Positions 2,156 through 53,509 are shown, numbered from the stretch's first letter. The stretch is 64,000 nucleotides of DNA from Rickettsia typhi (GCA_945865905.1 CAMBFC010000004.1:20553-84552), one strand, 5' to 3'. Notes: generated from the letters alone by a model not told the origin. Numbers and translations: made by a program.

Positions 2156-2279
2156 CTCTGCCTCTCAGGCAGTGATGGTCTAGCGAGATTTTATTTGAAC
2201 TTTTGCTGTTTTTTAATAGGGTTGTAAATGAAGGAAATCTTGACTAGAGGGAATTTACCAGCAAAAAATCAAACTCGAC
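2156..2279 (+). repeat. degenerate copy of hairpin-element core A (no mirrored arms)
   Basis: CTCTGCCTCTCAGGCAGTGATGGTCTAG...TTGAACTTTTGCTG matches the left half of the cores at 2338-2410 and 3341-3428. The right end is reduced to ATCAAACTCGAC (2268-2279), and the interior has extra sequence. Confidence 0.4.
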
Positions 2280-2286
2280 AAACTCA

Positions 2287-2461
2287 CAATTCGAGAAAAT
2301 CTCATGGGATAAATTAAGTTGGGGTGGCGGTCCTCTGCTCCTCAGACAGTGATGGTCTAGTCTTGATTTTGGTTAAACTATTGCTATTTTCAGACCATCA
2401 AAACTCGGCTCAGAGGACCGCCACCCCAACTTAATTTATCCCATGAGATTTTCTCGAATTG
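2287..2461 (+). repeat. long hairpin element, core A, 51-bp perfect inverted arms
   Basis: Positions 2288-2337 are the exact reverse complement of 2411-2460 (checked base by base), and 2287/2461 also pair. The 73-nt core contains the inner stem GATGGTCT/AGACCATC. The element ends 4 bp from the parA stop codon. Confidence 0.9.
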
Positions 2462-2465
2462 CCGA

Positions 2466-3260
2466 TCACTCCCCCAAGCTCTCTCGCAACAAAACCTCTT
2501 GCGCCAACTTAATATAAGCCACCGACCCCGGACATTTTGGATCATAAACTATCCCCGGCAACCCATGAGAAGGCGCCTCCGACAATTTAACATTTCGTGG
2601 AATCGAACTTTTAAACACCTTATCCTTCAAAAAACTGCGCACATCAACTTCAACTTGCTCAGTTAATTTATTGCGACGATCATGCATTGTCAGAATTATG
2701 CCGCTAATTTTGAGGTGATGGTTGAGGTTTTCTTTAATAAGATCTAAGCTGGTTAATAAATGACTTAGTCCTTCAAGCGCAAAAAACTCACATTGCATTG
2801 GAATCAAAACCGCATCAGAAGCAACTAAGGCGTTGATAGTTAAAAGACCTAAAGATGGAGGACAGTCAATTATAATAACATCATAATCATGAACCACATC
2901 CTTAAGTGTATTGCGCAAACAAAATTCGCGCTTTTCAATATTTACCAGCTCAACCTCACAAGCCGCAAGATCTACCGTTGAAGTGATTATGTGAAGATTT
3001 GGCAGTTTATGCGGCAATATTACATCACGAATTGATGATTCGCCGATAATAGCCTCGTAGATTGTTTTTTGTCTTTGTGATTGAAAAATACCAAGACCCG
3101 TGCTTGCGTTTCCTTGCGGGTCAAAATCTATTACCAAGGTTTTTTTCTTGATTGCAGCAAAGGCTGTGGCTAAATTTACTACGGTAGTGGTCTTTCCCAC
3201 TCCGCCTTTTTGATTAACTACAGAAAAAACTTTGGCGCGCTTTTGTTGATTTTTTATCAT
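2466..3260 (-). CDS. parA: chromosome partitioning ATPase ParA/Soj
   Basis: 264 aa with the deviant Walker A NQKGGVGKTTT and DFDPQGNAS, giving full-length ParA-family similarity. Confidence 0.92.
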   Translation of the reverse strand: MIKNQQKRAKVFSVVNQKGGVGKTTTVVNLATAFAAIKKKTLVIDFDPQGNASTGLGIFQSQRQKTIYEAIIGESSIRDVILPHKLPNLHIITSTVDLAACEVELVNIEKREFCLRNTLKDVVHDYDVIIIDCPPSLGLLTINALVASDAVLIPMQCEFFALEGLSHLLTSLDLIKENLNHHLKISGIILTMHDRRNKLTEQVEVDVRSFLKDKVFKSSIPRNVKLSEAPSHGLPGIVYDPKCPGSVAYIKLAQEVLLRESLGE

Positions 3261-3275
3261 AGTGTTTTGATTTTT

Positions 3276-3291
3276 TGTTTCATGTGGAACA
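3276..3291. promoter_or_regulatory. parS-like centromere site TGTTTCATGTGGAACA
   Basis: Matches the parS consensus TGTTNCACGTGAAACA at 14 of 16 positions. It lies 16 bp upstream of the parA start. The identical 16-mer occurs inverted at 4444-4459. Confidence 0.6.
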
Positions 3292-3304
3292 TTTTGGTTT
3301 TGGC

Positions 3305-3465
3305 ATTAATTCGGGATAAAGTTTGTTAGAAAGGAGCGCTACTCTGCCTCTCAGACAGTGATGGTCTGGTCTTGATCTTGGCTGAACTTTGGCTGCGTTC
3401 AGCAGGCCATCAAAACTCGATTCAGAGCAGCGCTCCTTTCTCAACAAACTTTATCCCGAATTAAT
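3305..3465 (+). repeat. long hairpin element, core A, 36/37-bp arms
   Basis: Arm ATTAATTCGGGATAAAGTTTGTTAGAAAGGAGCGCT (3305-3340) pairs with 3429-3465 apart from a single 1-nt indel. The core is homologous to 2338-2410. It sits between the parB stop and the parA start. Confidence 0.88.
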
Positions 3466-3483
3466 GTTACTTTTATTTTTAGG

Positions 3484-4413
3484 CTATTGGCTCAATTTTT
3501 TAACTAAATAATAGATCTTATCCAGCTCTGCAAAATCTATAGCGATTTTTCCAGAACTCTTAAACTGATTATAATTAATCCTAACTTTAGTATCTAATAA
3601 TGTAGATAGTTGGTTTTCTAAATCAGCCAAATGGCCAGAATTTATAAACTTAACTTTTGATTCATTACGAACCAAAACTGGATTATTTTTTAATTTCTCA
3701 ACCCTTTCATCACGAGCAACTTCTTCTACCTCTCTAACCGTTAATGCGCTTTCAACAATCTTTTTAGCCAAAGCTTCAGGATCTTTAGAATTGATAATTG
3801 CGCGCGCATGACCCATTGAGATAAGTTTTTTTTCAAGCAATGCATGAACCGATTTTGGCAAAGTTAGCAGGCGCAAAATATTAGCGACATGACTACGACT
3901 CTTGCCAGTTTTTTGTGCAATTTGCTCTTGGCTATAAGAAAACTCATCCATCAATTGTTTATATCCGTAAGACTCTTCGATTAGCGACAGATCTGCGCGT
4001 TGCACATTTTCAATTATTGCAATTTCTAAAGCCTCGTGATTGTTTATTTTTTTGATTATTGCTGGCATTTTTGTTAGGCCAACAATTTTTGCCGCACGAT
4101 ATCTTCTTTCTCCCGCAACAATCTCGTAATATCCCTCTTCATCACTTTTGCGCAAAATTATTGGCTGAATAACGCCATGCTCTTTGATTGAGTGCGCCAA
4201 ATCTTCTAATTCATCTTGATGAAAATTGCGTCTTGGCTGATAGACTCCAGCAATAATTTTTGAAATAGAAACTTCATCAATCGCTATAGAATTTTTTGAT
4301 TGAGGCTGATTTGATACAAAAGATTGAGCGACCAAATTATTTTTTTTACTATCTCCAAGCAATGCCGATAATCCTCTACCAAGCTTCTGATCTTGTTTTG
4401 CTATGTCTTTCAT
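3484..4413 (-). CDS. parB: chromosome partitioning protein ParB/Spo0J
   Basis: 309 aa with LGRGLSALL, the ParB box VAGERRYRAAK and an HTH region. Confidence 0.92.
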   Translation of the reverse strand: MKDIAKQDQKLGRGLSALLGDSKKNNLVAQSFVSNQPQSKNSIAIDEVSISKIIAGVYQPRRNFHQDELEDLAHSIKEHGVIQPIILRKSDEEGYYEIVAGERRYRAAKIVGLTKMPAIIKKINNHEALEIAIIENVQRADLSLIEESYGYKQLMDEFSYSQEQIAQKTGKSRSHVANILRLLTLPKSVHALLEKKLISMGHARAIINSKDPEALAKKIVESALTVREVEEVARDERVEKLKNNPVLVRNESKVKFINSGHLADLENQLSTLLDTKVRINYNQFKSSGKIAIDFAELDKIYYLVKKLSQ

Positions 4414-4443
4414 AATCTATATCTGTTAAATTAAACACCAAAA

Positions 4444-4459
4444 TGTTCCACATGAAACA
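4444..4459. promoter_or_regulatory. parS-like centromere site TGTTCCACATGAAACA
   Basis: Exact reverse complement of the 16-mer at 3276-3291. It lies 31 bp upstream of the parB start. Confidence 0.6.
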
Positions 4460-4519
4460 ATATTGGTCATAAATAATTTAACATTCAAGAATATTTTTTA
4501 ATTAATTATGAACTTACTC

Positions 4520-5314
4520 CTACTTTAAAACATCCTTCATTAAATAAAACCCAGCCTGTTGCCCGCTTCCCCAAATCGCCGCACGAATAGCTCCAGAGGC
4601 AAAAACATTGCGGTTGGTAGCCTTGTGAGTAAGCTCGACCCTTTCACCATCTGCAGCAAAAATAACAGTATGATCACCAATAACATCACCGCCACGAAGC
4701 GTTGCAAACCCAATCTCACCTTTTTTGCGAGGATTATTAACGCCAACACGCTCCATATTTGCAACATCTTTTAAATCAACGCCGCGACCCTTGGCAACAG
4801 ACGCTCCAAGTGATAGAGCCGTGCCAGAAGGCGCGTCAATCTTGTTGCGGTGATGCATCTCTACAATCTCTACATCATAATCTTCACGCAAAATTGCCGC
4901 AACTTTTTCTGCTAAGCTAAAGAGAACATTTACTCCAACTGACATGTTAGAAGACCAGATGATTACTGCTTGCTTGGCATATTCTGCAAGTTTTTGCTTG
5001 TCGGCCTCGGCAAAGCCAGTGGTGCCACAAACAAAAATCTTTTTATGTTCCACAGCTTTTTGAGCGCATTCTAAGCTAAATGCTGGCGAAGAAAAATCAA
5101 TCACCGCGTCGCAGTTTTTGAAAAAACTATCAAGATCAGAGGTTATTTTATAGCCAGTTTTTTCTTGTCCAAGAAACTCACCTAAATCTATGCCATCAAA
5201 ATTGTTGCCTTTGCGAACGAATCCTGCGGTTAGTTCTGCGATTGGGTCTGCAGTGACTAATTCTGCGATTACTTTGCCCATTCTGCCGGAAATTCCTGTG
5301 ACGCCGATTTTCAT
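4520..5314 (-). CDS. dapB: 4-hydroxy-tetrahydrodipicolinate reductase
   Basis: 264 aa with the N-terminal Rossmann motif MKIGVTGISGRMG and EMHHRNKIDAPSGTA, both typical of DapB. Confidence 0.9.
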   Translation of the reverse strand: MKIGVTGISGRMGKVIAELVTADPIAELTAGFVRKGNNFDGIDLGEFLGQEKTGYKITSDLDSFFKNCDAVIDFSSPAFSLECAQKAVEHKKIFVCGTTGFAEADKQKLAEYAKQAVIIWSSNMSVGVNVLFSLAEKVAAILREDYDVEIVEMHHRNKIDAPSGTALSLGASVAKGRGVDLKDVANMERVGVNNPRKKGEIGFATLRGGDVIGDHTVIFAADGERVELTHKATNRNVFASGAIRAAIWGSGQQAGFYLMKDVLK

Positions 5315-5362
5315 ACTATAATATTTTAAGTTTTTATAACGCGTTTATAGATTGTGCCGCAA

Positions 5363-5449
5363 TGATAAATTATGTGTGATTGGAGATCATTTTATTTCGC
5401 GCGCGAGCACAGCTACATAAAATGACCTCCAATCACACATAATTTATCA
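5363..5449 (-). repeat. long hairpin element, core C (GTAG loop read on the minus strand), 33-bp arms
   Basis: Arms 5363-5395 and 5417-5449 are complementary except for one position (plus-strand A vs C, which is U-G on the minus strand). The loop 5396-5416 is TTCGCGCGCGAGCACAGCTAC. Confidence 0.88.
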
Positions 5450-5548
5450 TAACGCACCTCGTAACAAATATCTGTAATAACAAATAAGGCTATTAGTAAT
5501 AAATACAAGTATCAAGTGATGACATGCTCTCAAAACTGGTGCGTTACA

Positions 5549-5629
5549 GATAAATTCTCTACCGCTTATTAATTTTATGTAGCTGTGCTTGCGCGCGAAA
5601 TAAAATTAATAAGCGGTAGAGAATTTATC
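5549..5629 (+). repeat. long hairpin element, core C, 30-bp perfect arms
   Basis: GATAAATTCTCTACCGCTTATTAATTTTAT (5549-5578) is the exact reverse complement of 5600-5629. The 21-nt loop is GTAGCTGTGCTTGCGCGCGAA (5579-5599). Confidence 0.9.
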
Positions 5630-5670
5630 GTGAAAGCAAGATCTATAAACCCCCGCAACCAATAATAAGC

Positions 5671-6576
5671 CTAGTTAACTTTAATATTCCATTTTTTAAC
5701 GAGATAGGCTTCTACGGAATCTCTTTCATTCGTTGTTAATGAGCGATCGAACATTATTATTTCTCCGATTTTTCCTGTGAAGAAATACGAATGATCGGGG
5801 CCTGATCCGATGCTTACGCCGCGAATATTTTGTGTGCCGCCATATGTAGATGCTGCGCTTGTTTGCTCAACTTTATTTGCTCTGGTACTAAGCGTTACAC
5901 CATTTCTTTCGCTGAAAGTAAGTAGGTAAGGAAAGGAGAGGCCGATAAATTGGGAAACGGCACCTATTACAGTTGAGTTTCCAGCATAACCTACTTGATT
6001 TTGCATCATTCCATCGGATCTGATATACATATAAAAGTATCCATCATTTACCATATTTAAAGATTCACTTACACCTACGCTTGATAAAATATATGATGCA
6101 ACACTGGGATTAGTATATTTTGTAATAACAAAAATTGTAAATGAGGTGAGGGAGGCACTTACAGTATTGTCTATATAATCATCAACTCCATCAAAAGATA
6201 GGCAGGGCAAGCCCTTAATACAATTTTCTGTATAGGTTGGTCGATTGCTGCCACTTGAAACCGCATTATATTTAGTGTTGGAAGTTGCATTTAGATCGCG
6301 CCAGGTACTGATTGCAGATCCATTTTCGATATCAACATCAAAACTCTCTTCTGCAGTGGTTTCAACCCAAAACATTATGCCTGTCATTGCATTCATTGGG
6401 GCATTTTGTGTTAACTGGCGCGCTGTTGAAAGCTGATATTTTCTTATTAAGCTACTTGCGTTGGTGACGCCAGCAATAATAATGCCAATAATTAGCAAAA
6501 CTATTGATAATTCAATCAAAGAAAAAGCCTTCTTTCTGGTGAATTTTTCTTTGATAAAATTGGCGATTTTTTTCAT
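5671..6576 (-). CDS. prepilin-type N-terminal methylation-domain protein with LamG/concanavalin-like C-terminal domain
   Basis: 301 aa. The KKAFSLIELSIVLLIIGIIIAG class-III signal/pilin N-terminus is clear. The LamG-type jelly-roll assignment for the C-terminal region (FTGKIGEIIMFDRSLT) is less certain. Confidence 0.7.
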   Translation of the reverse strand: MKKIANFIKEKFTRKKAFSLIELSIVLLIIGIIIAGVTNASSLIRKYQLSTARQLTQNAPMNAMTGIMFWVETTAEESFDVDIENGSAISTWRDLNATSNTKYNAVSSGSNRPTYTENCIKGLPCLSFDGVDDYIDNTVSASLTSFTIFVITKYTNPSVASYILSSVGVSESLNMVNDGYFYMYIRSDGMMQNQVGYAGNSTVIGAVSQFIGLSFPYLLTFSERNGVTLSTRANKVEQTSAASTYGGTQNIRGVSIGSGPDHSYFFTGKIGEIIMFDRSLTTNERDSVEAYLVKKWNIKVN

Positions 6577-6710
6577 TATATTTTAGTAACTATATTTTGC
6601 TTGCAGTTGGACGGCAATTACTTTAATATTTGTACATATGCTGATTATAAACTTTCTCTCGTCAAGAATTTTATAAACAATACTGATTCAAACAATCAAT
6701 AAATTCTAAA

Positions 6711-9521
6711 ATGACACAAGCTCAACCATTTAAAATTGCCGTTGCAAAAGATATCGTGCCAGTTTCTATCGCTGATGAAATGAAAAAATCCTACCTCGAT
6801 TATGCGATGAGCGTGATCGTGGCGCGCGCTATTCCTGATGCTTGCGATGGCTTGAAACCAGTGCATCGCCGCATTCTTTATGCGATGTATGAAGGTGGTT
6901 ATGATTATAATAAAGCATTTAAAAAATCGGCGAGAATTGTCGGTGAAGTGATGGGCAAATATCACCCACATGGTGATTCGGCGATCTATGAATCTTTGGT
7001 TCGTATGGCGCAAGATTTTTCGATGAGTTTGCCATTGATTGATGGGCAAGGTAACTTCGGATCAATTGATGATGATCCTGCGGCGGCGATGCGTTATACT
7101 GAGTCTCGTTTGGCGAAAGTTACGCATACAATGTTGGATGATTTGGATAAGGATACAGTAGATTTTGTTCCTAACTATGACGGTTCTGAGAGAGAGCCGC
7201 GTGTTATGCCGGCGCGTTTTCCTAACTTGTTGGTTAATGGCTCGAGCGGGATCGCTGTTGGTATGGCAACGAATATTCCTCCGCATAATTTGGGTGAGGT
7301 GATTGATGGCGTTTTGGCTTATATTGATAATCGTGATGTTACGGTTGATGATTTGTTGAAGATTATTCCGGGGCCAGATTTTCCTACTGGTGGGATTATT
7401 TTGGGACGCAGCGGTTATGATTCGGCGGCTCGCACTGGGCGCGGTTCAGTGATTATGCGCGGTCGTCACAAGATCGAGAAAATGAGCGGTGGCAAACAGG
7501 CGATTATTATCACCGAGGTGCCTTATCAGGTCAATAAAGCCAAGCTTGTAGAGAAAATCGCTGAGCTGGTGAAAGAGAAAAAAATTGAAGGCATCACTGA
7601 TCTGCGCGATGAATCTTCTCGCGATGGAATCCGCGTTGTTATTGAGTTGCGCCGTGATGCGATGGAAGAAGTTATCATCAATCAACTTTATAGTTTCACC
7701 GTTTTGCAAAGCAATTTTGGCGTGAACATGTTGGCGTTGAACCATGGCAAACCTGAGTTGCTCAATATTCTTGATGTGATCAGAATTTTCACTAACTTCC
7801 GCGAAACAGTTGTGGCAAGGCGCACCAACTTCTTGCTTAACAAGGCGCGCGACAAAACTCACATCTTAATCGGCTTGGCTGTAGCAGTGGGCAATATTGA
7901 TGAAGTTGTTGAATTGATCAAAAAATCAAAAGATGCAGCAGAAGCAAAAGAAAAACTTCTCGGTCGCAGCTGGCCCGCAGATACAGTGATGACCATCATG
8001 AAATTGGTGCAAGATAAAGGCAACATTATCAAAGATGGCAAGTTTTATTTCACCGAATTGCAAGCAAAAGCGATTCTCGATATGCGTCTTGCACGCTTGA
8101 CAGGCCTTGAAATGGACAAGATCAACGAAGAGTTGAAAAACTTAGCCGCAGAAATTGCTGGTTACCTAGAAATTCTTGGCGATCGCAATGTTTTATTAGC
8201 TGTTGTTAAAAGAGAATTAGCAGAAGTTAAAGAACAATTTGCTGTTCCGCGCCGCTCTAGCATTGAAGATAGCGAGTTTGAAGTTGATATGGAAGATTTA
8301 ATTCCAAAAGAAGATATGGTTATTGTTGCCACATTAAATGGCTATATTAAACGAGTTGCACTTTCGGCTTATCGCACGCAAAGACGCGGTGGGCGCGGGC
8401 GCTCTGCGATGGATGTTCGCGAAGAAGATATCGCTACTGATATTTTTGTTGCTAATACTCACACGCCGATTTTGTTCTTTTCTAGCAAAGGAAAATGTTA
8501 TAAATTGAAGGCTTATAAACTTCCGCTGGGCAATCCACAAGCGCGTGGAAGAGCTTTGGTGAATTTGCTGCCAATTGATCAAGATGAAAAAATCTCGACA
8601 ATTTTGGCGCTTCCTGAAGATGAATCTAAATGGAATGATTTGAGTATCATCTTCGCTACTGCATCTGGCGATGTGCGTCGCAACTCAATGGATCAATTTG
8701 CTGATATTCGTTCGAGCGGCAAAATCGCGATGAAACTCGAAGGTGATGATTCGTTGATTGGCGTGAATCTATGCGGCGAAAAAGATGACATTTTGCTTTC
8801 TACTAAAAATGGAAAATGTATTCGTTTTCCTGTTGAAAAATTGCGTATTTTCCAAAGTCGCAACTCAACTGGCGTACGCGGAATCAAAATGGATAGCGGC
8901 AATAAAGTTATGGCAATGTCAGTATTGACGCATGCTGGCGACGATTCTGAATTAAAAGAAAAATATCTCAATATTAATCTTGAAAAACGCTTGGCACTTA
9001 AAAACGCTTTGATTTTTAACAAAAAATTGAAAGAAAATCCAAGCGATGATTTGTTGGTGCAGCCGCTTGAAGTGCCTGTTATTAAAGGCGCAGAGCTTGC
9101 TCAAGATGTGATTGAAAAAATGGCGGTGGATGAAGAATTTATTTTCACCATCACGGAGAATGGCTATGGCAAACGCTCTTCGGCCTATGAATATAGAATT
9201 ACGAATCGTGGCGGTTCGGGAATTACCAACATTATCACTTCGAAAAGAAATGGCGATGTGGTGGCGAGCTTCCCAATTGAAGGCAATGATCAGGTGATGA
9301 TTATTACTGATAAAGGCACGCTGATTCGCACAGAAATTGGCACGGTGAGAATTTCGGGAAGAAATACTCAAGGTGTTACGCTCATTAAAGCTAAGGATGA
9401 AAAAGTGGTTTCGGTCGCTAGAATCGCGCATACTGGCAATAAAGAAGTTGACGAGGCGGAAGTTGGAGAGGAAATTTCTGGCGAAGCTTCGGATGGCGCT
9501 GATGTTGGTGCGGCGGAATAA
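6711..9521 (+). CDS. gyrA: DNA gyrase subunit A
   Basis: 936 aa with [14 protein letters not shown], the active-site region AAMRYTE and C-terminal beta-pinwheel repeats. An acidic tail is present. Confidence 0.95.
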
Positions 9522-9530
9522 ATTATTACA

Positions 9531-9565: not shown

Positions 9566-9573
9566 ATGAAAAA

Positions 9574-9632: not shown

Positions 9633-9893
9633 ATGCCAGAGATTAGTCGCTTTTTCGGCATTGTGATTTACATGTATTTTAATGATCACAATCCACCACA
9701 TTTTCATGTGCAATATGAAAAATATCGAGCAACTATTGACATAAATAACTTGGGAATTGTCGATGGATCTCTGCCACCTAAAGCCTTGTCTTTAGTGATT
9801 GAATGGGCAAGCATTCATCAGAAAGAATTGCTCAAAAACTGGGAAAGTATTAAAAAAATCGGCGAGTTCGATAAAATAAAACCGTTAGCTTAA
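9633..9893 (+). CDS. DUF4160 family protein
   Basis: 86 aa. MPEISRFFGIVIYMYFNDHNPPHFHVQY is the hallmark DUF4160 N-terminus. Confidence 0.8.
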   Translation: MPEISRFFGIVIYMYFNDHNPPHFHVQYEKYRATIDINNLGIVDGSLPPKALSLVIEWASIHQKELLKNWESIKKIGEFDKIKPLA

Positions 9894-9894
9894 A

Positions 9895-11649: not shown

Positions 11650-11667
11650 AGTTTATTATTCGTAAAA

Positions 11668-11814
11668 GATAAATTACCTACTGCCAATTGACTAGGCAGA
11701 GGGTCTGAGGCGAGTTCTGCTCTTCATCGCAAGCTACGCTTGCTTTAAATCAGATGAAAGCGATGTCTGAGCAGCAGACCCTCTGCCTAGTCAATTGGCA
11801 GTAGGTAATTTATC
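11668..11814 (-). repeat. long hairpin element, core B, 40-bp perfect arms
   Basis: Positions 11668-11707 are the exact reverse complement of 11775-11814. The 67-nt core CTGAGGCGAGTTCTGC...GATGTCTGAGCAGCAG is homologous, in inverse orientation, to the core of 41881-42001. The element starts 19 bp after the gatB stop. Confidence 0.9.
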
Positions 11815-11843
11815 GCTAAACGAGATCTAAAAACACAAAAAAA

Positions 11844-16805: not shown

Positions 16806-16898
16806 GTTTTTGTTTTCTTAGGCTTAAACTTTTGCTTGCGTAAATTTTTTTGCTGAACTCTGGATCTTGTCTTCGGCGTGGTCGGATCTTATCAGGCG

Positions 16899-16914
16899 CT
16901 GCTGCTCAGACACC
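16899..16914 (+). repeat. solo fragment of the core A/B left end (CTGCTGCTCAGACACC)
   Basis: 16-nt identity to 41905-41920. No right end or mirrored arms are found nearby. Confidence 0.35.
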
Positions 16915-21420: not shown

Positions 21421-24093
21421 GTGAAACAAAATTTATCTAATTATAATCATAAAGAATGCGAACCTAAGTGGCAGAAGACTTGGGACGATGCTCAAGTTTT
21501 TAAATTTGACGAAAACTCTGCTAAGCCAAAATTTTATGAGCTCGAGATGTTGCCTTATCCTTCGGGCAAAATTCACATGGGCCACTTACGCAATTATGCA
21601 ATTGGCGATGTAATTGCTCGTTTTAAAATGATGCAGGGCTTTAATGTACTACACCCAATGGGCTTTGATGCTTTTGGTTTGCCAGCCGAAAATGCTGCCT
21701 TGCAACATAAAATTCACCCAGAAAAATGGACGCTCGAAAATATCGAAACGATGCGCGCCGAACTAAAAACAATTGGCCTTTCTATCGATTGGAGCCGCGA
21801 GATTGCTACCTGTTTGCCTGATTATTACAAACATGAACAAAAGATTTTTCTCGATTTTTTAAAGGCTGGATTAGCCTATCAAAAAGAATCTTTGGTTAAT
21901 TGGGATCCGATTGATAATACCGTTTTGGCCAATGAGCAAGTGATCGATGGCCGCGGTTGGCGCAGTGGCGCGCTGGTTGAAAAGAAAAAACTTCGTCAAT
22001 GGTTTTTAAAAATTTCTGATTTTTCGGAAGAATTATTGCAAGAGCTAAAAGTTTTAAATGGTTGGGACGAGCGGGTTTTAACCATGCAAGAAAAATGGAT
22101 TGGAAAATCAGAGGGGCTGGTGGTTGATTTTAAATTGTCGGATATAAATGACAAAATTCAAGTTTATACAACGCGCCCTGACACCTTATTTGGCGCGGCT
22201 TTTATCGCTATTTCTGCACATCATCCTGTGGCGTTAAAATTGGCGCAAAATAATTCTGCGATTAAAGAATTTATTGCGCAGTGCGATAAAAATGCTATTG
22301 ATGAACAAACGCTAGAAACCCAAGAGAAGAAAGGCGTGGCGACGGGTTTGCAAGTTGAACATCCGCTTGATTCAAACTGGAAAATAGATGTTTATGTTGC
22401 CAATTTTGTCTTGATGGATTATGGCACGGGAGCTGTGTTTGGGTGCCCTGCGCATGATGCGCGCGATTTTGAATTTGCGATAAAATACAATTTGCCGATC
22501 AAGCAAGTTGTTGCGCCGCTTGATTCATCTAAAAATACCTTCGCATCGCAAAATAGAAACCTTACTTCTGAATCGATCAATTCTCATATCAGCACTACAG
22601 AACTGCCATTTCTTGAAGATGGTATAATTATAAATTCTGATTTTCTCAATGGCCTTACTTGCGAGCAAGCGCAGCACAAAGTTGCAGAAATTCTCTGCGG
22701 CAAAAATCAAGCACAGCGCAAAACAAATTTTCGTCTGCGTGATTGGGGTGTCTCGCGCCAGCGCTATTGGGGCTGCCCAATTCCAATTTTATATTTAGAA
22801 GACGGATCTGCGGTGCCAGTGCCACAAGATCAACTGCCAGTTGAGCTGCCAAAGGATGTTGTTTTTACTGGCACCGGAAATCCTCTCGCAAATCACCCCA
22901 CTTGGAAACACACAACCTACACCGATGCTAGCGGCAAAACACAAAAAGCCATTCGCGAAACCGACACTTTCGATACATTTTTTGAAAGCTCGTGGTATTT
23001 TTTGCGCTATATATCGAAAGCCGAAGATAAAGCCTTTGACAGAGATGTGGTAAATAAATTTATGCCCGTCGATCAATATGTTGGCGGCATCGAGCACGCA
23101 GTTTTGCATTTGCTTTATGCGCGCTTTTTTACTAAAGCATTAAAAAAATGTGGTTACCTAGATTTTAGTGAACCATTTAAAAACCTACTCACACAAGGGA
23201 TGGTCTGCCATCACACTTTTAAAAATCAAAAAGGTGAATGGGTTTTTCCTAGCGAAGCGGTTGAGGTTGAAGCCGGAAAATTCATCCATGAAAAAACCCG
23301 CGAAGCCTTGGTGCGCGGCCGTAGTGAAAAAATGAGCAAATCGAAAAAAAATGTCGTTGAGCCATTGCACATCGTCGAAGCCTACGGAGCAGACACTGCG
23401 CGGCTTTTTATGCTTTCAGATTCTCCTGCGTCACGCGATTTAGAATGGTCAGAAAGTGGCGTCGATGGCGCGTGGAAATATGTCAATCGCTTATGGAAAT
23501 TGGTGGCATCTCATGCCAATCAAATTGATCATGGCCCTTTGCAGCCTCTTGCAACCTATAACGAGGAGCAATTGCAAATAATAAAACTCACTCACAAAAC
23601 AATCGCAATGGTTGGTGATGAATTCGAAAAAATCGGCTTCAATCGAGCAATTGCAAAGATCCGCGAGTTTTCAAATGCACTAGAAAAATTTGCAACGCAA
23701 AATGATAATGCCGCAAACCAAGGCAGCTCTAACGATAGCGCCAAAAAAAATGCAGAAGTAATGCATTTTGCTCTCACAAATTTAGTGATTTTATTTGCGC
23801 CAATAATGCCTCATTTAGCTGAAGAATGCTGGGCCGCTCTAGGCAATAAAAACTTGGTTACTCAAGCAAAATTTCCGCAATTTGATGGACAATTGATCAG
23901 CGAAAATTCTGTAAAAATTGCTGTGCAAGTTATGGGAAAACTTCGCGCTGTGCTCGAAATGTCAAAAGGCGCGAGCCGCGAAGATGTTGAGTTAGCGGCA
24001 TTACAAAATGAAAATGTGCAGAAATTTTTGGAAGGAAAAACTGCTAAAAAAATTATTGCGGTGCCGGATAAAATGATAAATTTTGTGTTGTAA
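21421..24093 (+). CDS. leuS: leucine--tRNA ligase
   Basis: 890 aa with the HMGH and KMSKS motifs and a CP1 editing domain. GTG start. Confidence 0.94.
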   Translation: MKQNLSNYNHKECEPKWQKTWDDAQVFKFDENSAKPKFYELEMLPYPSGKIHMGHLRNYAIGDVIARFKMMQGFNVLHPMGFDAFGLPAENAALQHKIHPEKWTLENIETMRAELKTIGLSIDWSREIATCLPDYYKHEQKIFLDFLKAGLAYQKESLVNWDPIDNTVLANEQVIDGRGWRSGALVEKKKLRQWFLKISDFSEELLQELKVLNGWDERVLTMQEKWIGKSEGLVVDFKLSDINDKIQVYTTRPDTLFGAAFIAISAHHPVALKLAQNNSAIKEFIAQCDKNAIDEQTLETQEKKGVATGLQVEHPLDSNWKIDVYVANFVLMDYGTGAVFGCPAHDARDFEFAIKYNLPIKQVVAPLDSSKNTFASQNRNLTSESINSHISTTELPFLEDGIIINSDFLNGLTCEQAQHKVAEILCGKNQAQRKTNFRLRDWGVSRQRYWGCPIPILYLEDGSAVPVPQDQLPVELPKDVVFTGTGNPLANHPTWKHTTYTDASGKTQKAIRETDTFDTFFESSWYFLRYISKAEDKAFDRDVVNKFMPVDQYVGGIEHAVLHLLYARFFTKALKKCGYLDFSEPFKNLLTQGMVCHHTFKNQKGEWVFPSEAVEVEAGKFIHEKTREALVRGRSEKMSKSKKNVVEPLHIVEAYGADTARLFMLSDSPASRDLEWSESGVDGAWKYVNRLWKLVASHANQIDHGPLQPLATYNEEQLQIIKLTHKTIAMVGDEFEKIGFNRAIAKIREFSNALEKFATQNDNAANQGSSNDSAKKNAEVMHFALTNLVILFAPIMPHLAEECWAALGNKNLVTQAKFPQFDGQLISENSVKIAVQVMGKLRAVLEMSKGASREDVELAALQNENVQKFLEGKTAKKIIAVPDKMINFVL

Positions 24094-24132
24094 ATTTTAT
24101 TTATACACCAACTTTAATTTGCGGAAGAGAAA

Positions 24133-41827: not shown

Positions 41828-41880
41828 ATGTTTTTTGTTTTTGAATCTTGGGTTATAGTCCTTGGTTTACGGTGAGAGTT

Positions 41881-42001
41881 GGAGCGACGAGGCTCTGCTG
41901 CTCAGACACCGCATCCATCTGATTTAAAGCGAGCGTAGCTCGCGATGGAGTGCAGAACTCGCCTCAGAGCCTCGTCGCTCCAACTCTCACCTGCTATGGT
42001 T
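41881..42001 (+). repeat. long hairpin element, core B, 27-bp perfect arms
   Basis: GGTGAGAGTTGGAGCGACGAGGCTCTG (41881-41907) is the exact reverse complement of 41975-42001. The core is homologous to 11708-11774 in the opposite orientation. It lies 31 bp after the hemE stop. Confidence 0.9.
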
Positions 42002-46794: not shown

Positions 46795-46808
46795 ATTAAA
46801 GGAGAATT

Positions 46809-47168: not shown

Positions 47169-47190
47169 GGTTTATTGTCAGATTTATTGT

Positions 47191-47220: not shown

Positions 47221-47288
47221 CAATCATGATCTAGGCCTGTCTGACAAAAACATGTGGTGCACTAATAAAAAAGATTAAAGCAGCAAGC

Positions 47289-47765: not shown

Positions 47766-47768
47766 ATT

Positions 47769-48404: not shown

Positions 48405-48412
48405 AAATTGAT

Positions 48413-49516
48413 ATGCTAAAAGCTCACAAATATCTTTCTCAAATTGAAACTTACAAACCGGGAAAAGCTAAAATCTCTGGCGCAGCAAATATAAAAATAG
48501 CAAAACTATCTTCCAACGAAAATGCCCTAGGGTCAAGCCCACTGGCGCTTGCTGCTTATCGCGATCATGCTGATGCGGTTTTTCGTTATGCCGATGGATC
48601 TTGCATTTTGTTGCGCGAGGCCTTGGCGCAGCTGCATAAAATTAATGCAGAAAAAATAGTTTGTGGCGCGGGGTCAGATGAAATTATTGCGCTTTTAACT
48701 TCGGCATTTGCGGGCGTAGGCGATGAAATAATTTATAGCAAGCACGGGTTTTTAATGTATCCAATCTCGGCGAAGCGCGTAGGCGCTGATGCGGTGATGG
48801 TTGATGAAAATAGTTTAAAAACAGATGTTGGGGCAATTTTAAAAGCAATTACACCAAAAACAAAAATAATTTTTATTGCCAATCCCAATAATCCAACTGG
48901 TTCTTATCTTAATAAAGACGAGGTTGCGTGGTTAATTTCTTCTGTGCCAAAAAATATTCTTATTGTGCTGGATCATGCTTACGAAGAGTTCGCGCAAGGG
49001 CTTGCAGCCGATTATCCTGATGCGATTGCTTTAGTAAATCAACATGAAAATGTGGTAGTAACGCGCACCTTCTCCAAGGTCTACGGCCTTGCCTCTCTAA
49101 GAATTGGTTGGTGTTATGGCTCTGCTTATGTTGCAGAAATTCTTAACAAAATGCGCGGACCTTTTAATGTTGGTGGGCCGGCTCAAGCGGCTGCTGTTGC
49201 GGCTTTGCAAGATGTTGAGTTTTTTGAAAAATCACTCGCGCATAATAAAAAATGGTTGGAGAAATTTTTTGCAGAAATCTCTCAGCTCAATCAAATCAAG
49301 GCCCATCCATCAATTGCAAATTTTATTTTGCTTGATTTTGGCAGTGTAGAATCATGCAAAAAAGCTAATGAAAAATTATTAGCGGAGGGAATCATTCTGC
49401 GCGAAATGGAGGCATATCATTTGCCGAGCTGCCTACGGATGACCATTGGCAGCGCTGAAGAAAATATTAAGCTTTTACCATTGCTTGAAGCTGTTAATCA
49501 AATTATTTGTATCTAA
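48413..49516 (+). CDS. hisC: histidinol-phosphate aminotransferase
   Basis: Class-II aminotransferase with SSNEN, NPNNPTG and the TFSKVYGLASLRIG PLP-lysine region. I chose the ATG at 48413; the track TTG at 48392 overlaps hisH. Confidence 0.88.
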   Translation: MLKAHKYLSQIETYKPGKAKISGAANIKIAKLSSNENALGSSPLALAAYRDHADAVFRYADGSCILLREALAQLHKINAEKIVCGAGSDEIIALLTSAFAGVGDEIIYSKHGFLMYPISAKRVGADAVMVDENSLKTDVGAILKAITPKTKIIFIANPNNPTGSYLNKDEVAWLISSVPKNILIVLDHAYEEFAQGLAADYPDAIALVNQHENVVVTRTFSKVYGLASLRIGWCYGSAYVAEILNKMRGPFNVGGPAQAAAVAALQDVEFFEKSLAHNKKWLEKFFAEISQLNQIKAHPSIANFILLDFGSVESCKKANEKLLAEGIILREMEAYHLPSCLRMTIGSAEENIKLLPLLEAVNQIICI

Positions 49517-49533
49517 CAACTAAATTAATAAAT

Positions 49534-50148
49534 ATGTTTGATAATTTCAATGATTCTGATACACAGAGCTTTGTTTTCTCGCTGCTCTTGTTAGTTTTTT
49601 TAATTAGTAGTTTAATTTTTCGTCGTGAAATTGCACTTTCTAAAGCTTTAAAATATCTGGCGCTTTGGACTTTGATTGCTTTGGTGGGAGTTGGTCTTTA
49701 TGCCTATCGTTATCAATTTACTGATTTTAAAGAAAAGATGCTCGAGGCGATTAACCCTACAGCAGTAAGGGTTAATGATAGGGGTGAAATGGTGATTAAT
49801 CTTTCTAGTGAGGGGCATTTTTTTATTGATGTTACAATTAATGGTATATCAATGCGCTTTATGATTGATACGGGAGCAAGTGATATTGTGATTGATAAAA
49901 ACCAAGCGCAAAAACTTGGCATTAATATACAAGACTTAGTTTTTAATAAACGCTACGAAACCGCTAACGGCAGGTCTTACGGGGCGAGTGTGGTTTTGCA
50001 AGAAGTACAAGTTGGCAATGCTAAATTTCATAATATCGCCGCTTCAGTTAATAGTGCAGAGTTGGGAACGCCACTTTTGGGAATGAGCTTTTTGCGACAG
50101 TTTAAGAAATATGAGTTCTATCAAGAGCGATTGGTGTTGACTTTATAG
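49534..50148 (+). CDS. membrane-anchored retropepsin-like aspartic protease (TIGR02281/APRc type)
   Basis: N-terminal TM helices followed by GHFFIDVTINGISMRFMIDTGASDIVI, the DTG retropepsin signature. ATG at 49534; the track uses the TTG at 49507. Confidence 0.8.
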   Translation: MFDNFNDSDTQSFVFSLLLLVFLISSLIFRREIALSKALKYLALWTLIALVGVGLYAYRYQFTDFKEKMLEAINPTAVRVNDRGEMVINLSSEGHFFIDVTINGISMRFMIDTGASDIVIDKNQAQKLGINIQDLVFNKRYETANGRSYGASVVLQEVQVGNAKFHNIAASVNSAELGTPLLGMSFLRQFKKYEFYQERLVLTL

Positions 50149-50204
50149 GATTGTTGTAAAGGCTATTAGATCAGAAGTTTATTTTGTTAATTAATAAATA
50201 ATTT

Positions 50205-52331
50205 ATGTCAAAAACTGAATTAAAACCATCTCAGAAACTTGTGGCCCTAATTAAAGAGGCGTTGATAGATGGTGATAGAAAAAAATTTGTTAAAGAGGCG
50301 ATAAGATTGAAAGATGCAAAGATAATAGTTAGTCCGGAAATTCAATCTGCGCTGAAAGAAGTTCTTGAAAAAAAGAAAGGCGATATTGTCGGGGCATATA
50401 TTGCAATATTTGGTAGGGATAAGAATTTTCTAGAGGCTTACCAAAAGCGAAGCGATATTTTTAAAGGCTTTGCTGAAACTGCAAGTTATAGTAGAGAAGT
50501 GGCAGCTCTTTCAGACCTCATAAGTAAATCTAATCAAGAATTGTATGGTTTAGATCAGGTTGTAAAATCTCCAACGCCAGTAGCTCAAAAGAGCCCCAGC
50601 TTAGAGTCTGGTCTCGATGTGTCGAAAGATGTCTCGTCACAAGCTGTTGTGGCTATAGAAGAGAAGGCTAAGCCAGATCTTGTTGGTGAGCTGGTGGTTA
50701 AAATTTCTGATAGAATACTTCATAACAAAACTGTAAGCGAGTTATCTTTTGTAAAAATAATGCCTTTGAAGGAGGGCAAGGATGGCAATGAACGCATCAA
50801 AAAACTTTTGATAAAAGCGGTGAGCGAAGGAAGTTCGTTTGGGGGGGAGAGAGGAGAAGAGCCTATTGAGTCATCTAGGGCGGGGGTTAATAATCCTAAT
50901 AAAAGATATGATGTTGTGGAGGCTTATTTGGAAGCGCGCAAAAAGGATACTTCATATAAAATCGAGGATGACGTTTGTTATCAAGATGTATTGAAAGTGG
51001 TTGTGGGGCAGTATAGAGAGGCTGCTAGCAAAGATGCTACAAGTGGCACTGAATTTCTTTTACATAGCGCTTGTTTTGTGGACCGTGTTAAGAAATGTAA
51101 AGATTTATATCAAAATGTTTCTGATATATACGACAAAGAATTAGCGGAGGCTAAAGCCATTGGAGAGAGACGAAGACAAAAAAGAGAGGTTGAGGAGGGG
51201 GAGAAGGCAAAAGCTTGGAATTTAGCTTTGGATTTGGAGAAAAAGAGAGGAGCTGCCCCTGTTGATGGGCATAGAGATTTTATGAGCGAAATTAAGGCGC
51301 CTGAAGGGGGTCCGGAAGATCCGGAATCTGAATATTATTCGGATGACTTTGAATCTGAATCTGATGATGAAGGGGTAGTGCGCGCTGCTGCGCTTGCTAA
51401 TCAGGAGAGAAGAGAGCGCACTGAAAAGAGGGGGCTGGCTTCTGAGCGAGAGAGGAGGGCTTTTGACAAAGCATTGAGTAAAATGAATGGAGCGTCAGAT
51501 AAAGATAACAAGAGTCATTTGGGGTCGCTCACTTCGACAGGGGAGGAAAGAAAATCTATCATTCCTCAACCCATCAAAGGAGATTCAAGAAGGGCAACCT
51601 ATGCTGCAAACGCTCAGGATCAAGAGGCTAATCCAAACATAATGGCCGCGCAAGAGACTAGAAAGCCTGTTATTTCTGAAAGTGCAAAAAAATTGTTGCA
51701 AGGAATTAAGGATAGAGAGGCGAGAAAAACAGCTGCGGCTTCGGCTGCTAAGGCAGAACAAGAGTCGCAGAGGGTGCTCGCTAGTGAAACAAGATCTGAG
51801 TTGATAAAGGGGCTACCCAGCTTTAAAAAAAGAACTCCTGAGGAAGAGCGTGCGCAAGATGCTGCAAGAGAGCGTGCGGCAATTGCCGCGTTTGCCGCTG
51901 GCGGCTCTCGTGCTTCTGGTGGCGCGATTCGCAGAGAGGTGCCACTAGCAGCGAGGCTTGAGACAAGGGTTGCGGCGCCAAATAGCGCAACAGATTACGG
52001 CCTTCAGGGTCCGCGTGGAAGTGTTTCAGCAAAATATTTGCCGGGAAGTAATAAAATGCGCTCTTCGGCAGAATATGACTCGGGTCAGGGCAGCAGCAGA
52101 GGAAGCTCTGCGGAGGATTTGAGTGCTGCAGCTGTTGATTCTGGAGCTAAAAACAATTCGAGAAGAATAAGCTTTGATGCCGGTGAAAAGCAAACACCTG
52201 AAAGGTTAAAATCATCTCGAGGCCCAAAAAACCCGGGTAATGGTATAGTGTCTCGTGGTACAGTTCGTCGGCTAACTAGCACATCTCTTGGCGGAGGTCT
52301 CCAAGGCAATGAAACCCCTCGCGCACAATGA
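50205..52331 (+). CDS. large orphan protein, charged/disordered C-terminal two thirds
   Basis: 708-aa uninterrupted ORF that fills the interval and overlaps truB by ATGA. No domain recognised. It has E/R/K/S/A-rich low complexity and is locally GC-rich (34 GC in the 60 nt at 51361-51420). Confidence 0.65.
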   Translation: MSKTELKPSQKLVALIKEALIDGDRKKFVKEAIRLKDAKIIVSPEIQSALKEVLEKKKGDIVGAYIAIFGRDKNFLEAYQKRSDIFKGFAETASYSREVAALSDLISKSNQELYGLDQVVKSPTPVAQKSPSLESGLDVSKDVSSQAVVAIEEKAKPDLVGELVVKISDRILHNKTVSELSFVKIMPLKEGKDGNERIKKLLIKAVSEGSSFGGERGEEPIESSRAGVNNPNKRYDVVEAYLEARKKDTSYKIEDDVCYQDVLKVVVGQYREAASKDATSGTEFLLHSACFVDRVKKCKDLYQNVSDIYDKELAEAKAIGERRRQKREVEEGEKAKAWNLALDLEKKRGAAPVDGHRDFMSEIKAPEGGPEDPESEYYSDDFESESDDEGVVRAAALANQERRERTEKRGLASERERRAFDKALSKMNGASDKDNKSHLGSLTSTGEERKSIIPQPIKGDSRRATYAANAQDQEANPNIMAAQETRKPVISESAKKLLQGIKDREARKTAAASAAKAEQESQRVLASETRSELIKGLPSFKKRTPEEERAQDAARERAAIAAFAAGGSRASGGAIRREVPLAARLETRVAAPNSATDYGLQGPRGSVSAKYLPGSNKMRSSAEYDSGQGSSRGSSAEDLSAAAVDSGAKNNSRRISFDAGEKQTPERLKSSRGPKNPGNGIVSRGTVRRLTSTSLGGGLQGNETPRAQ

Positions 52332-53044
52332 ATTTTGCAACCGAAAATTACTGGCTCAACATCGATAAGCCCGTAGGCATTAGCTCGGCGCGGGCGGTGG
52401 CGATTGTTAAGCGGCTTACTAAGGCTAAAAAAGTTGGTCATGGAGGCACGCTAGATCCCTTTGCTGATGGCATTCTTCCTATCGCCGTCAACAAGGCCAC
52501 CAAAACCGCCGAGGCAATGATGGCGGCGCGCAAGCAATATCGTTTTCGTATTCAATGGGGCGAATTTCGTGATACTGATGATGTTGAGGGGCAGGTTGAA
52601 GAATCAAGCGCAGCGAGGCCTTCTAGCGCAGAGCTAATCTCGATTCTGCCACAATTTGTTGGCAAAATTCAGCAAACACCATCGCGGTTTTCTGCAATAA
52701 AAATCAACGGCCAACGCGCTTATGATCTTGCTCGCGACGGCGTTGCCTTTGAAATGAAATCGCGCGAAATCGAAATTTTCTCACTAAAATTGCTCAGCAA
52801 TAATCAAAATTTTTGCGAAATAGAAATTGAATGCTCAAAGGGAACCTATGTGCGTTCATTGGCTCGCGCTATTGCACAAAAATTGCAAGCCTGCGGATAT
52901 GTTTCAAAATTAACCCGTTTGCAAGTGGGGCGATTTTTGTATCAAAACAAAATATCGCTTGAAACCTTAAAAAATGCCACTAGATTTGACGGCACATTGT
53001 TAGATGGCTCGCTGCTTTTGCTGCAAGATGCTATTAAGATGTGA
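52328..53044 (+). CDS. truB: tRNA pseudouridine(55) synthase (short form, no PUA domain)
   Basis: 238 aa with GHGGTLDPFADGILPIAV, containing the catalytic Asp motif. Confidence 0.88.
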   Translation: MNFATENYWLNIDKPVGISSARAVAIVKRLTKAKKVGHGGTLDPFADGILPIAVNKATKTAEAMMAARKQYRFRIQWGEFRDTDDVEGQVEESSAARPSSAELISILPQFVGKIQQTPSRFSAIKINGQRAYDLARDGVAFEMKSREIEIFSLKLLSNNQNFCEIEIECSKGTYVRSLARAIAQKLQACGYVSKLTRLQVGRFLYQNKISLETLKNATRFDGTLLDGSLLLLQDAIKM

Positions 53045-53130
53045 TGCAATCATAGGCTTTTGGGCCTTTAAGATCAAGCCTTCGGGCTAGTTTAAAAGTT
53101 CAAAATCAATATTAAAATAAACAAAAAAAG

Positions 53131-53403
53131 ATGTCTACTCTTACCCAAAAAACTAAGCAAGAAGTGATCAAAACATTCGCGCCAACCAAAGCTGATACTG
53201 GTTCAGTTGAAGTTCAGGCCGCTGTTATGACCAAACAGATTGAAAATTTAACCGAACATTTAAAGATCCACAAAAAAGATCATTCATCTCGTCGCGGGCT
53301 TTTGATCCTTGTGGGCAAAAGAAGAAGATTGCTTGATTATCTTAAAGATAAATCAAAAGATCGCTATGAAGCGTTGATTAAAAAATTAGAAATTAGAAAA
53401 TAG
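53131..53403 (+). CDS. rpsO: 30S ribosomal protein S15
   Basis: 90 aa with [30 protein letters not shown]. Confidence 0.94.
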
Positions 53404-53424
53404 TTGCTTTAAGTTTTCGTTCGT

Positions 53425-53509
53425 TACAGAGAATCACTCTTCTGATATTTATTTATGTAGCTGTGCTTGCGCGCGAAATAAATGAATATCAGAAGAGTGA
53501 TTCTCTGTA
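53425..53509 (+). repeat. long hairpin element, core C, 32-bp arms, in the rpsO-pnp leader
   Basis: Arms 53425-53456 and 53478-53509 are complementary except for one U-G position on the plus strand. The loop 53457-53477, GTAGCTGTGCTTGCGCGCGAA, is identical to 5579-5599. Confidence 0.9.

Follow-up and report, generated by a model that had tools for sequence, protein, structure and literature searches.

A stretch of 64,000 nucleotides deposited under the name Rickettsia typhi (GCA_945865905.1 CAMBFC010000004.1:20553-84552; the whole stretch is referred to as the window in the following) contains seven long inverted repeats in its intergenic spacers. The question raised by this locus is how hairpins whose stems vary from copy to copy keep their two arms mirrored, and whether this marks a structure selected in the host or a mobile repeat. 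In the original prediction, made from the sequence of the window alone, conserved ends and cores combined with freely varying but always compensated stems were taken as the signature of a selected structure or of arm-to-arm conversion, and not of a decaying miniature inverted-repeat transposable element (MITE). Based on comparison with related sequences, the copies probably represent small, mobile and non-coding palindromic repeats of a lineage-specific family resembling either MITEs or the repetitive extragenic palindromes (REPs) with their composite forms, the bacterial interspersed mosaic elements (BIMEs) and REPINs, which belongs to an uncultured freshwater Rickettsiales clade. The hairpin family appears to be previously undescribed.

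Inverted repeats were located by a mechanical repeat search and by direct reading of the window sequence. All seven hairpins predicted before were recovered by the search, with arms of 24–51 nt and complementarities of 86–100%, and the window additionally contains two decayed copies. Both had been listed as fragments and are real remnants, the one at 2156-2279 being of A type and the one at 16898-16912 of B type. Sequences outside the window are cited by L numbers.

Oriented monomers and their distribution, gain and loss

Each monomer measures 85–175 nt and is oriented, reading 5' YCGTKnnA-GATAAAT ... ATTTATC-...CRAGATCT 3'. The 5' flank YCGTKnnA (for example TTATTCGTTGTA, GGTGCGTTACA and TTATTCGTAAAA) is followed by the clamp GATAAAT (present in most copies), a stem of approximately 15–45 bp, an apical module and the mirrored stem, and the 3' flank reads ...AAGCRAGATCT, then AWAAAC. 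At least three kinds of apical modules were observed, one per monomer. Module C is a 21-nt loop consisting of GTAG and a mini-hairpin of 5 bp, the core of module B comprises about 75 nt, and that of module A, which has the same base as B, about 82 nt. The analysis confirmed the layered build proposed previously, in which a clamp and a mirrored stem are combined with one of three cores. Unpaired motifs are near-invariant, namely the 21-nt C loop and, in A/B, CTCAGACA and GAACTCG; the latter two lie between helices of the B core and are invariant in an alignment of 25 sequences (A2). Nesting of B inside the C loop was considered and rejected, since B copies lie in a GATAAAT shell without any trace of ATTTTAT or the C loop.

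In the window, the 5' motif shared by A and B, TCTGCNNCTCAGRCA, was matched six times at 0–1 mismatch; at up to two mismatches, eight matches compare with 1.85 expected, and none of 100 shuffles reached eight. The 21-nt C loop was found three times (0 expected), and GATAAATT 22 times as compared to 8.8 expected, 10 of these 22 being clamps.

Since the flanks are asymmetric and conserved, the monomer has a polarity. Within this frame, C loops (GTAGCTGTGC...) are oriented forward and A/B cores (TCTGC...TCAGA) are reversed. Monomers are often paired as doublets, and singlets also occur. Adjacent monomers were arranged head-to-head with their 5' flanks inward in 12 of 12 pairs, for which the chance under random orientation is about 6e-8. 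The doublets include C-C, C-B and B-B combinations with gaps of 36–161 nt and unrelated linker sequences, and their termini are inverted (...AGATCTTGC / GCAAGATCT...). Furthermore, a composite of about 400 nt (C, spacer, B) recurs at different loci of one genome, showing 83% identity including the spacer (L007 vs. L014).

The distribution of the family was determined by scanning one representative genome per species, comprising 185,579 species, for the A/B pattern TCTGCNNCTCAGRCA-N40-68-ACTCGNNTCAGA. Nineteen of the 21 loci found are located in three lake Rickettsiales metagenome-assembled genomes (MAGs), namely Baikal-deep-G64, Jr-7aug17-213 and ZE-13nov19-301. The core interior is missing from the remaining two (an Omnitrophus MAG and Gordonibacter), which are probably chance matches. 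The C loop was detected in 15 lake contigs in a metagenome scan and is also present in the Baikal loci. After removal of duplicates, about 57 distinct copies from at least four species were obtained, each with palindromic flanks and all intergenic except one ambiguous case. Among representative genomes whose titles name a Rickettsia species, only a lake MAG mislabelled ‘Rickettsia typhi’ matched the A/B pattern; blastn against plasmids yielded no match and viral contigs 0 matches to both core patterns. At the Rfam gathering threshold only tRNA-Met passed and no element matched; in E-value mode, only generic miRNA-precursor hairpins appeared, with 21–46 bits against thresholds of 60–119. The absence of an Rfam match above threshold and of an A/B match in any other genome titled as Rickettsia agrees with the original prediction, in which the cores were not recognised as Rickettsia palindromic elements, REP/BIME or ERIC.

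Many copies are located at contig ends; some palindromes reach the contig edge (L008, L009, L023), and the Logan contigs L004, L026, L047 and L048 end inside elements. De Bruijn assemblers may produce fold-back chimeras at inverted repeats, and such a pattern could be read as an assembly artefact. The window copies, however, are internal, have different genes on each side and recur in identical form in assemblies made independently from other samples with other assemblers (L001-L004, L046). This agreement indicates that the window hairpins are not fold-back artefacts, an explanation whose probability is close to nil. With hairpin repeats dispersed over a genome, contigs ending at or inside elements are to be expected.

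Syntenic regions from three further species (L041, L043, L044) were obtained by means of GyrA relatives. The parA-parB spacer comprises 223 nt in the window as compared to 53–78 nt, with parS only, in all three relatives. Its excess corresponds to the 163-nt palindrome, and hence the whole palindrome including both arms is an insertion. Likewise, the purH-parA spacer measures 401 nt in the window vs. 25–66 nt in L041 and L044. Moreover, in L031, with 98% identical flanks, a C-C doublet of 241 nt lies precisely at the stop codon of a gene of the ornithine carbamoyltransferase (OTCase) family, where the window is empty (58771). In Baikal-G64 (L018, 87% identity), a B singlet occupies the stop codon of a tRNA-synthetase gene at which the window is likewise empty (24093), and Jr-213 (L025) harbours two different B copies in the same spacer. 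This spacer is thus filled differently in two species, indicating independent occupation. The B remnant of the window is orthologous to an intact B element in MAG Jr-213 (L013 3383-3455). In total, filled vs. empty sites were seen at 98% (L031), 87% (L018) and about 80–86% (L041, L043, L044) identity, and copies were gained or lost mostly just downstream of genes. As judged from these sequence comparisons, the elements are mobile and not locus-conserved, with some copies decaying by truncation. Presence/absence between strains together with decay, i.e., the behaviour of mobile selfish repeats, contradicts the earlier stance against a MITE-like nature.

At both sites compared in filled and empty form, a native stop-codon context, TGTT(G/A)TA(A/G), directly adjoins the element on its 3' side. 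The window positions 24085-24093 and 58763-58771 belong to unrelated genes, both ending in TGTT(G/A)TAA, and in many copies T(T)AYAAC or AWAAAC follows on the 3' side. Gene ends of the type TGTT(G/A)TAA may represent a target preference.

Proteins encoded in the window and the stretches just outside were assigned to housekeeping functions, to VirB8 and CagX, to Bro-N proteins and to a retropepsin. By Pfam context, no transposase or integrase was found in the window or in the stretches just beyond, in accordance with the previous observation for the window itself. All-against-all clustering of 172 open reading frames (ORFs) from about 165 kb of element-bearing contigs yielded no recurrent mobile-element protein; only a glutamine amidotransferase family and a pilin-like family with lectin domain emerged, the latter being the only recurrent neighbour protein. 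A crude screen of 141 ORFs from element-bearing contigs for the HUH motif gave no match.

Variable but compensated hairpins with conserved ends, placed after stop codons, would also be produced by a cassette-capture system in which each mobile gene cassette has an attC-like folded single-strand site at its 3' end. The pilin-like gene (5671-6576) points in this direction: a C-C doublet lies downstream of it, it is absent between dapB and gyrA in three relatives, and paralogs occur near C elements. Such a system is nevertheless very improbable: most copies flank single-copy housekeeping genes, neither an integrase nor cassette arrays were found, the R''/R' consensus is absent as judged by sequence reading, and a doublet was inserted without any gene.

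Mirrored stems at the DNA and RNA level

Each core copy is flanked by a palindrome of 17 to >65 nt, and some arms extend over 40–56 nt without a mismatch. The stems had been described as copy-specific and unrelated, which applies within the window only. Once more copies are compared, they fall into diverged families whose differences are mirrored in the opposite arm. The stem family GATAAATnnnCTACTGnnnATTGnCnnGnnAGnGGG carries the B core in window copy 11668 and in L007, L014, L018, L020, L022 and L038, and its basal 23 nt also form the stem in C copies, e.g., in L032 and window copy 5549. The stem GATAAATnnnCTACTGnnnATTG is common to B and C copies, several Jr-213 B copies share ...CTGACCATGC or CCATCAAGCYTAGGGGGAAGYGC, and the arms of A-type copies form a family of their own (window copy 3304, L017).

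Mirrored change was quantified in an alignment of the C family (A1; 21 sequences, 36 stem pairs), with 500 column shuffles and a partner column slid by 1–3 positions as controls. Changes on both sides were found for 29 of the 36 pairs. Double-changed cells numbered 177 as compared to 53 in shuffles, and standard pairs accounted for 94.9% of cells vs. 67% after shuffling, values reached by 0/500 shuffles in each case; with the slid partner, 37–46% remained. In the B-core alignment, 14 of 26 predicted pairs covary, including an internal 2-bp helix (column 15 with column 80: GC 13, CG 10, UA 1). Among 1721 arm positions of 50 elements, 40 mismatches were counted, corresponding to 97.7% Watson-Crick pairs. 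The compensation claimed in the original prediction therefore exceeds both controls by far.

Mirrored change is also seen between orthologous copies. Between window copy 11668 and its Baikal-G64 ortholog L020 (flanks 88% identical), four of four arm substitutions are mirrored. Window copy 5362 and L026 have flanks with 98.1% identity; they differ by a cluster of three substitutions (TGATT to AGGCT), exactly mirrored in the other arm, and one G:T is additionally resolved to G:C. Template-switching events turn imperfect repeats perfect, and the arms might be maintained by purely mechanical means, the copies being inert relics that are homogenised by template switching or gene conversion with neither structural selection nor a dedicated enzyme. 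Arms of 40–56 nt without mismatch, the mirrored changes in both ortholog pairs (clustered where the flanks are 98% identical) and the near absence of wobble intermediates are in line with this explanation. Moreover, a study on E. coli documents quasipalindromes as hotspots of template-switching mutations (PMC7202029). Mechanical homogenisation leaves unexplained the near-invariant unpaired motifs (the 21-nt C loop; CTCAGACA and GAACTCG), the asymmetric flanks, the head-to-head doublets, the spread of the family and a position-specific G:T bias. Furthermore, the orthologs L007 and L029 differ by three uncompensated arm changes, which shows that homogenisation is not obligatory. As a sole cause, it is considered improbable.

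The composition of the remaining mismatches bears on the level at which complementarity is kept. RNA-selected stems normally contain several per cent G:U throughout. In C stems, the non-Watson-Crick cells are nearly all G:T on the GTAG-loop strand (12 vs. 1 A:C, p = 0.003), and 10 of the G:T cells fall into four adjacent alignment columns (29–32), 7–10 bp below the loop. Outside these columns, one G:U was counted in about 600 cells. Transversion-type double changes are common, one pair showing CG 7, GC 6, AU 4 and UA 4. The near absence of G:T outside one 4-bp spot indicates a DNA palindrome rather than an RNA stem, and the pattern of the aligned sequences fits a DNA palindrome with one tolerated weak spot. 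A general strand-specific wobble bias was considered and rejected, as it holds in C only: the A/B arms show a ratio of 9 to 2 (p = 0.065), and in the B-core helices the bias tends to be opposite.

Host-selected RNA structures in operon mRNAs, acting as RNase III sites, 3'-end stabilisers or attenuators, were considered in this context. Nearly all copies are intergenic and near stop codons, perfect stems of 30–50 bp would be RNase III substrates, and one copy lies between rpsO and pnp, a spacer regulated by RNase III in E. coli. The G:T bias on the C-loop strand, the leaning of singlets towards the sense orientation (about 9 to 3) and the better conservation of some orthologs as compared to their flanks can also be explained in this way. 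On the other hand, there is no conservation at orthologous loci of relatives, and truncated copies persist. Relative to co-directional flanking genes, no orientation is preferred (16 copies sense, 11 antisense); since, in addition, every doublet holds one monomer of each polarity, the polarity belongs to the element and not to the host transcript. G:U pairs are nearly absent from the stems save for the one 4-bp spot, unlike in typical RNA families, and no Rfam match above threshold was obtained. Finally, no U-run follows any element hairpin, as determined by sequence reading and by a terminator scan; the 3' flanks read GTGAAAGCAAGATCT, GCTAAACGAGATCT and similar. The sole terminator-scan match inside an element is a 6-bp stem at 3351-3369 within core A of copy 3304-3466, and intrinsic terminators were rejected, since none of the element hairpins scored as a terminator and U-runs are missing 3' of them. 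A structure selected at the RNA level is the weaker reading and not favoured; it is regarded as unlikely.

For mobile palindromic repeats, it is proposed that complementarity would be kept at the DNA level in two ways. Firstly, only copies with a foldable single strand would be propagated by a trans-acting, structure- and sequence-specific enzyme reading the conserved apex and clamp on the folded strand; a hypothetical single-strand-DNA transposase of the HUH/Y1 type (RAYT or IS200 type) would be the likeliest candidate. Secondly, intrastrand template switching may copy one arm onto its partner, or another copy may convert the entire element. Effects on host mRNAs, if any, would be incidental. 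The original prediction was right in assuming actively maintained arms, and its arm-to-arm conversion is a good candidate for a part of the mechanism; setting the elements apart from mobile repeats was its mistaken part. More speculative, and about as improbable as purely mechanical maintenance, is a new mode of single-strand hairpin mobility, in which a cruciform or lagging-strand fold would expose the small conserved apex in single-stranded form to a structure-specific Rickettsiales enzyme and the second arm would be regenerated at each transposition. In C, the REP-like mini-hairpin with GTAG would serve as this apex, and in A/B the internal loops CTCAGACA / GAACTCG. Such regeneration would explain stems that drift freely yet stay exactly mirrored. 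In a variant of this idea, the hairpins would be processed into small RNAs carrying the variable-stem sequence.

Several results weigh against an interpretation as mobile repeats of the REP/REPIN or MITE kind. REPs are defined as palindromes of 20–50 nt after a conserved tetranucleotide, usually GTAG (PMC8266576). The formal definition fails here, as the monomers are longer (85–175 nt) and the tetranucleotide is not conserved, the 5' foot reading GTAG, ACAG, AAAG, GCAG or ATAG. No transposase, integrase or HUH-motif ORF was found in the window, the approximately 165 kb of element-bearing contigs or the neighbouring contig stretches. With respect to target duplications, the L018 insertion would agree with duplication of TA or with a direct, diverged duplication of the gene end (about 21 nt), and the L031 doublet compared with the window shows no direct duplication. 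The wobble bias hinting at a defined active strand is solid for C (12 to 1) and not for A/B. Finally, some orthologs are better conserved than their flanks, which could indicate a host-level function: C3 and L036 differ at one position in 145 nt (element plus 30-nt flanks; flanks 96.3% identical), and L014 and L028 differ at two positions (flanks 86.5% identical).

Copies in the window and their surroundings

The features located in the window are summarized in Table 1. Folding of six window copies as single-strand RNA gave energies between -52 and -114 kcal/mol (z-scores between -10.7 and -16.9).

Table 1. Hairpin monomers, decayed copies and empty target sites in the window (SHMT, serine hydroxymethyltransferase).
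Feature	Position	Strand	Structure and sequence	Context and RNA fold
Decayed A-type copy	2156..2279	(-)	5' half of core A (CTCTGCCTCTCAGGCAGTGATGGTCT...) kept; degenerate 3' end (..ATCAAACTCGACAAACTCAC); arms unpaired	2157-2171 matches the A/B 5' motif with 0 mismatches; strand assigned by analogy with B
A-type monomer	2287..2461	(-)	51-nt arms, 100% complementary, including GGGATAAATT clamp; core A 82 nt	starts 4 nt past parA stop codon; -114.3 kcal/mol, z -16.9
A-type monomer	3304..3466	(-)	GGGATAAAG clamp variant; arms 24 nt at 100% and 19 nt at 95%	between parB and parA, adjoining parS
C-type monomer C1	5362..5450	(-)	39 nt at 92%; 34-bp stem, one G:T pair; 21-nt loop GTAGCTGTGCTCGCGCGCGAA	left member of head-to-head doublet; z -13.2
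C-type monomer C2	5540..5638	(+)	44 nt at 86%; inner 30 bp perfect; imperfect basal extension TGCGTTACA/GTGAAAGCA	right member of doublet 5343-5650; z -10.7
B-type monomer	11651..11833	(+)	palindrome 11668-11814, 40-nt arms at 100%; flanks 5' TTATTCGTAAAA, 3' GCTAAACGAGATCTAAAAAC	between gatB and aconitase-family (leuC-like) gene; z -15.1
Truncated B remnant	16898..16912	(-)	GCTGCTGCTCAGACA	spacer downstream of SHMT (glyA-like) gene
Empty target site	24084..24098	(.)	GTGTTGTAA	stop codon of 890-aa tRNA-synthetase gene
B-type monomer	41871..41991	(-)	27-nt arms, 100%; without GATAAAT clamp; 3' flank motif CCAAGATTCAAAAAC at ~41841-41855	downstream of hemE; z -11.8
C-type monomer C3	53425..53509	(+)	37 nt at 92%; 32-bp stem, one T:G pair	between rpsO and pnp; z -12.6
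Empty target site	58763..58778	(.)	TTGTTATAA	stop codon of OTCase-family gene

All window copies are intergenic, as stated before, and the gene context given at that time (purH, parA, parB, dapB, the pilin-like gene, gyrA, gatB, hemE, rpsO and pnp) was right. Two other details had to be corrected. The elements were said to begin 4–31 bp after a stop codon; the nearest stop codon is 4–41 nt away, and copy 5362-5450 lies upstream of dapB and not after a stop codon. Arms of 27–51 bp with 0–1 defects had been reported, which does not hold for copy 3304-3466 with its 2–3 defects. Outside the window, about 5.4 kb past its right end, a further B-core copy starts at the extreme end of a Logan contig (L051 14155-14181).

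In the par region, the order parB then parA is the reverse of the usual parA-parB. A parS site (TGTTTCATGTGGAACA) at 3276-3291 between the two genes is one mismatch away from the palindromic form TGTTTCACGTGGAACA of relatives, in which that form occurs once or twice in the parA-parB spacer and a related form, TGTTTCACGTGAAACA, two to three times in the parB-dapB spacer. In several alphaproteobacteria, the replication origin is located near hemE. The window segment 42000-46500, adjoining hemE, shows the lowest G+C content (0.31 at 42–44 kb) and a minimum of the cumulative GC skew at about 44–46 kb; it is a possible candidate for the replication origin oriC.

The pilin-like gene at 5671-6576, with the C-C doublet just downstream, encodes an N-terminal methylation motif and has no counterpart between dapB and gyrA in the three related species. 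Its paralogs in L034, L035 and L038 also contain a Laminin_G_3 lectin domain and recur near C elements; possibly, the gene is accessory and was acquired along with the repeats. Furthermore, a DUF4160/DUF2442 gene pair (9633-9893 and the adjacent ORF) lies between gyrA and gatB in the window; in relative L041 (11979-12496), such a pair is found between gatB and leuC instead. In L041 and L043, the gyrA-gatB spacer contains Bro-N genes. Like the repeats, these small accessory genes move among the same spacers.

Other repeats were observed in the gatB-leuC spacer of relatives. In L043 (16102-16330), it is filled by two direct copies and one inverted copy of AAAATGGATTGCCACGCCACTAAAACGGCCTGCAATGACGGGGA, which we take to resemble Rickettsia-type palindromic elements, and in L044 (14648-14807) it contains an unrelated long hairpin with 57-nt arms and 86% complementarity. 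The clade thus seems to carry several hairpin-repeat families.

The gene content of the window is broader than that of classical reduced Rickettsiales and includes purH, a leuC-like gene, pyrimidine and polyamine genes, deoxyhypusine synthase and type IV secretion genes (VirB8, CagX); the observation also covers L044 22771-22805. In public metagenomes, >120 cluster representatives of GyrA at ≥80% identity were found, and the clade therefore seems diverse and widespread.

Comparison with known systems

With REPs, BIMEs and REPINs, the elements share their nature as intergenic, high-copy, non-coding palindromes with decayed singlets, the arrangement in inverted doublets with a variable linker (here 12/12) and oriented units, comparable to REP vs. 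inverted REP (PMC8266576). REPINs are composed of conserved parts and hairpins in which ‘compensatory changes ... are common’ (PMC3116915), and here, too, the hairpin is kept by compensatory change. The combination of conserved parts with a compensated stem, previously read as the mark of a selected structure or of arm-to-arm conversion, had thus already been described for REPINs. TnpA-REP recognises single-stranded REP but not inverted REP and depends on GTAG (PMC8266576). The C apex consists of GTAG and a small imperfect hairpin, which is a resemblance only, and GTAG also forms the 5' foot of some copies. In contrast to REPINs, with conserved arms and a variable spacer, it is the apex and a short basal clamp that are conserved here, and the mid-stem varies. 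Moreover, no RAYT gene was found in the window, the approximately 165 kb of element-bearing contigs and the neighbouring stretches.

Similarities to MITEs, including the Rickettsia palindromic elements (RPEs), Correia, ERIC and BOX, concern the small non-autonomous format with long inverted repeats and the presence/absence polymorphism between relatives. The whole element is an inverted repeat, and terminal inverted repeats are hence present. A modular or mosaic composition is shared with BOX and BIME, and the host order with RPEs. The elements differ from MITEs in that no insertion sequence was seen in the DNA examined, no clear short target duplication was found and the match between the arms is far closer than in MITEs undergoing decay. 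Many RPEs are inserted in-frame inside genes (PMC10969869), whereas the copies described here are intergenic. The A/B pattern search over representative genomes and the plasmid search revealed no sequence link to RPEs; no RPE consensus was compared.

Similar to attC sites, the elements are imperfect palindromes after stop codons whose structure is kept at variable sequence, and in attC sites one folded single strand functions. Their bases (GATAAAT/ATTTATC) and flanks (YCGTKnnA and ...CRAGATCT) do not correspond to R'' (RYYYAAC) and R' (GTTRRRY), no integrase or cassette array was found along the window, and the copies flank housekeeping genes. Template-switch correction would explain the exact Watson-Crick arms, the clustered mirrored changes and the lack of wobble intermediates; it is, however, a mutational process and not an element family, leaving apices, polarity, doublets and spread unexplained.

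The family provides a clean natural data set in which stems diverge at many positions yet stay Watson-Crick, combined with conserved apices, a defined polarity and head-to-head pairing. Public lake metagenomes allow direct tests of whether selection or template switching keeps the arms complementary, and the C loop and the A/B internal loops are sequence handles toward the mobilising protein. In addition, the elements break short-read assemblies of these genomes and mark hotspots of spacer turnover, probably also of rearrangement. The family appears to be new; it does not reveal a new type of system and belongs to a known sort of selfish DNA. By analogy, the elements would work like REPINs or MITEs, although they are not filed as REPs, and they extend REPIN/BIME-like biology to an uncultured, apparently abundant freshwater clade of Rickettsiales.

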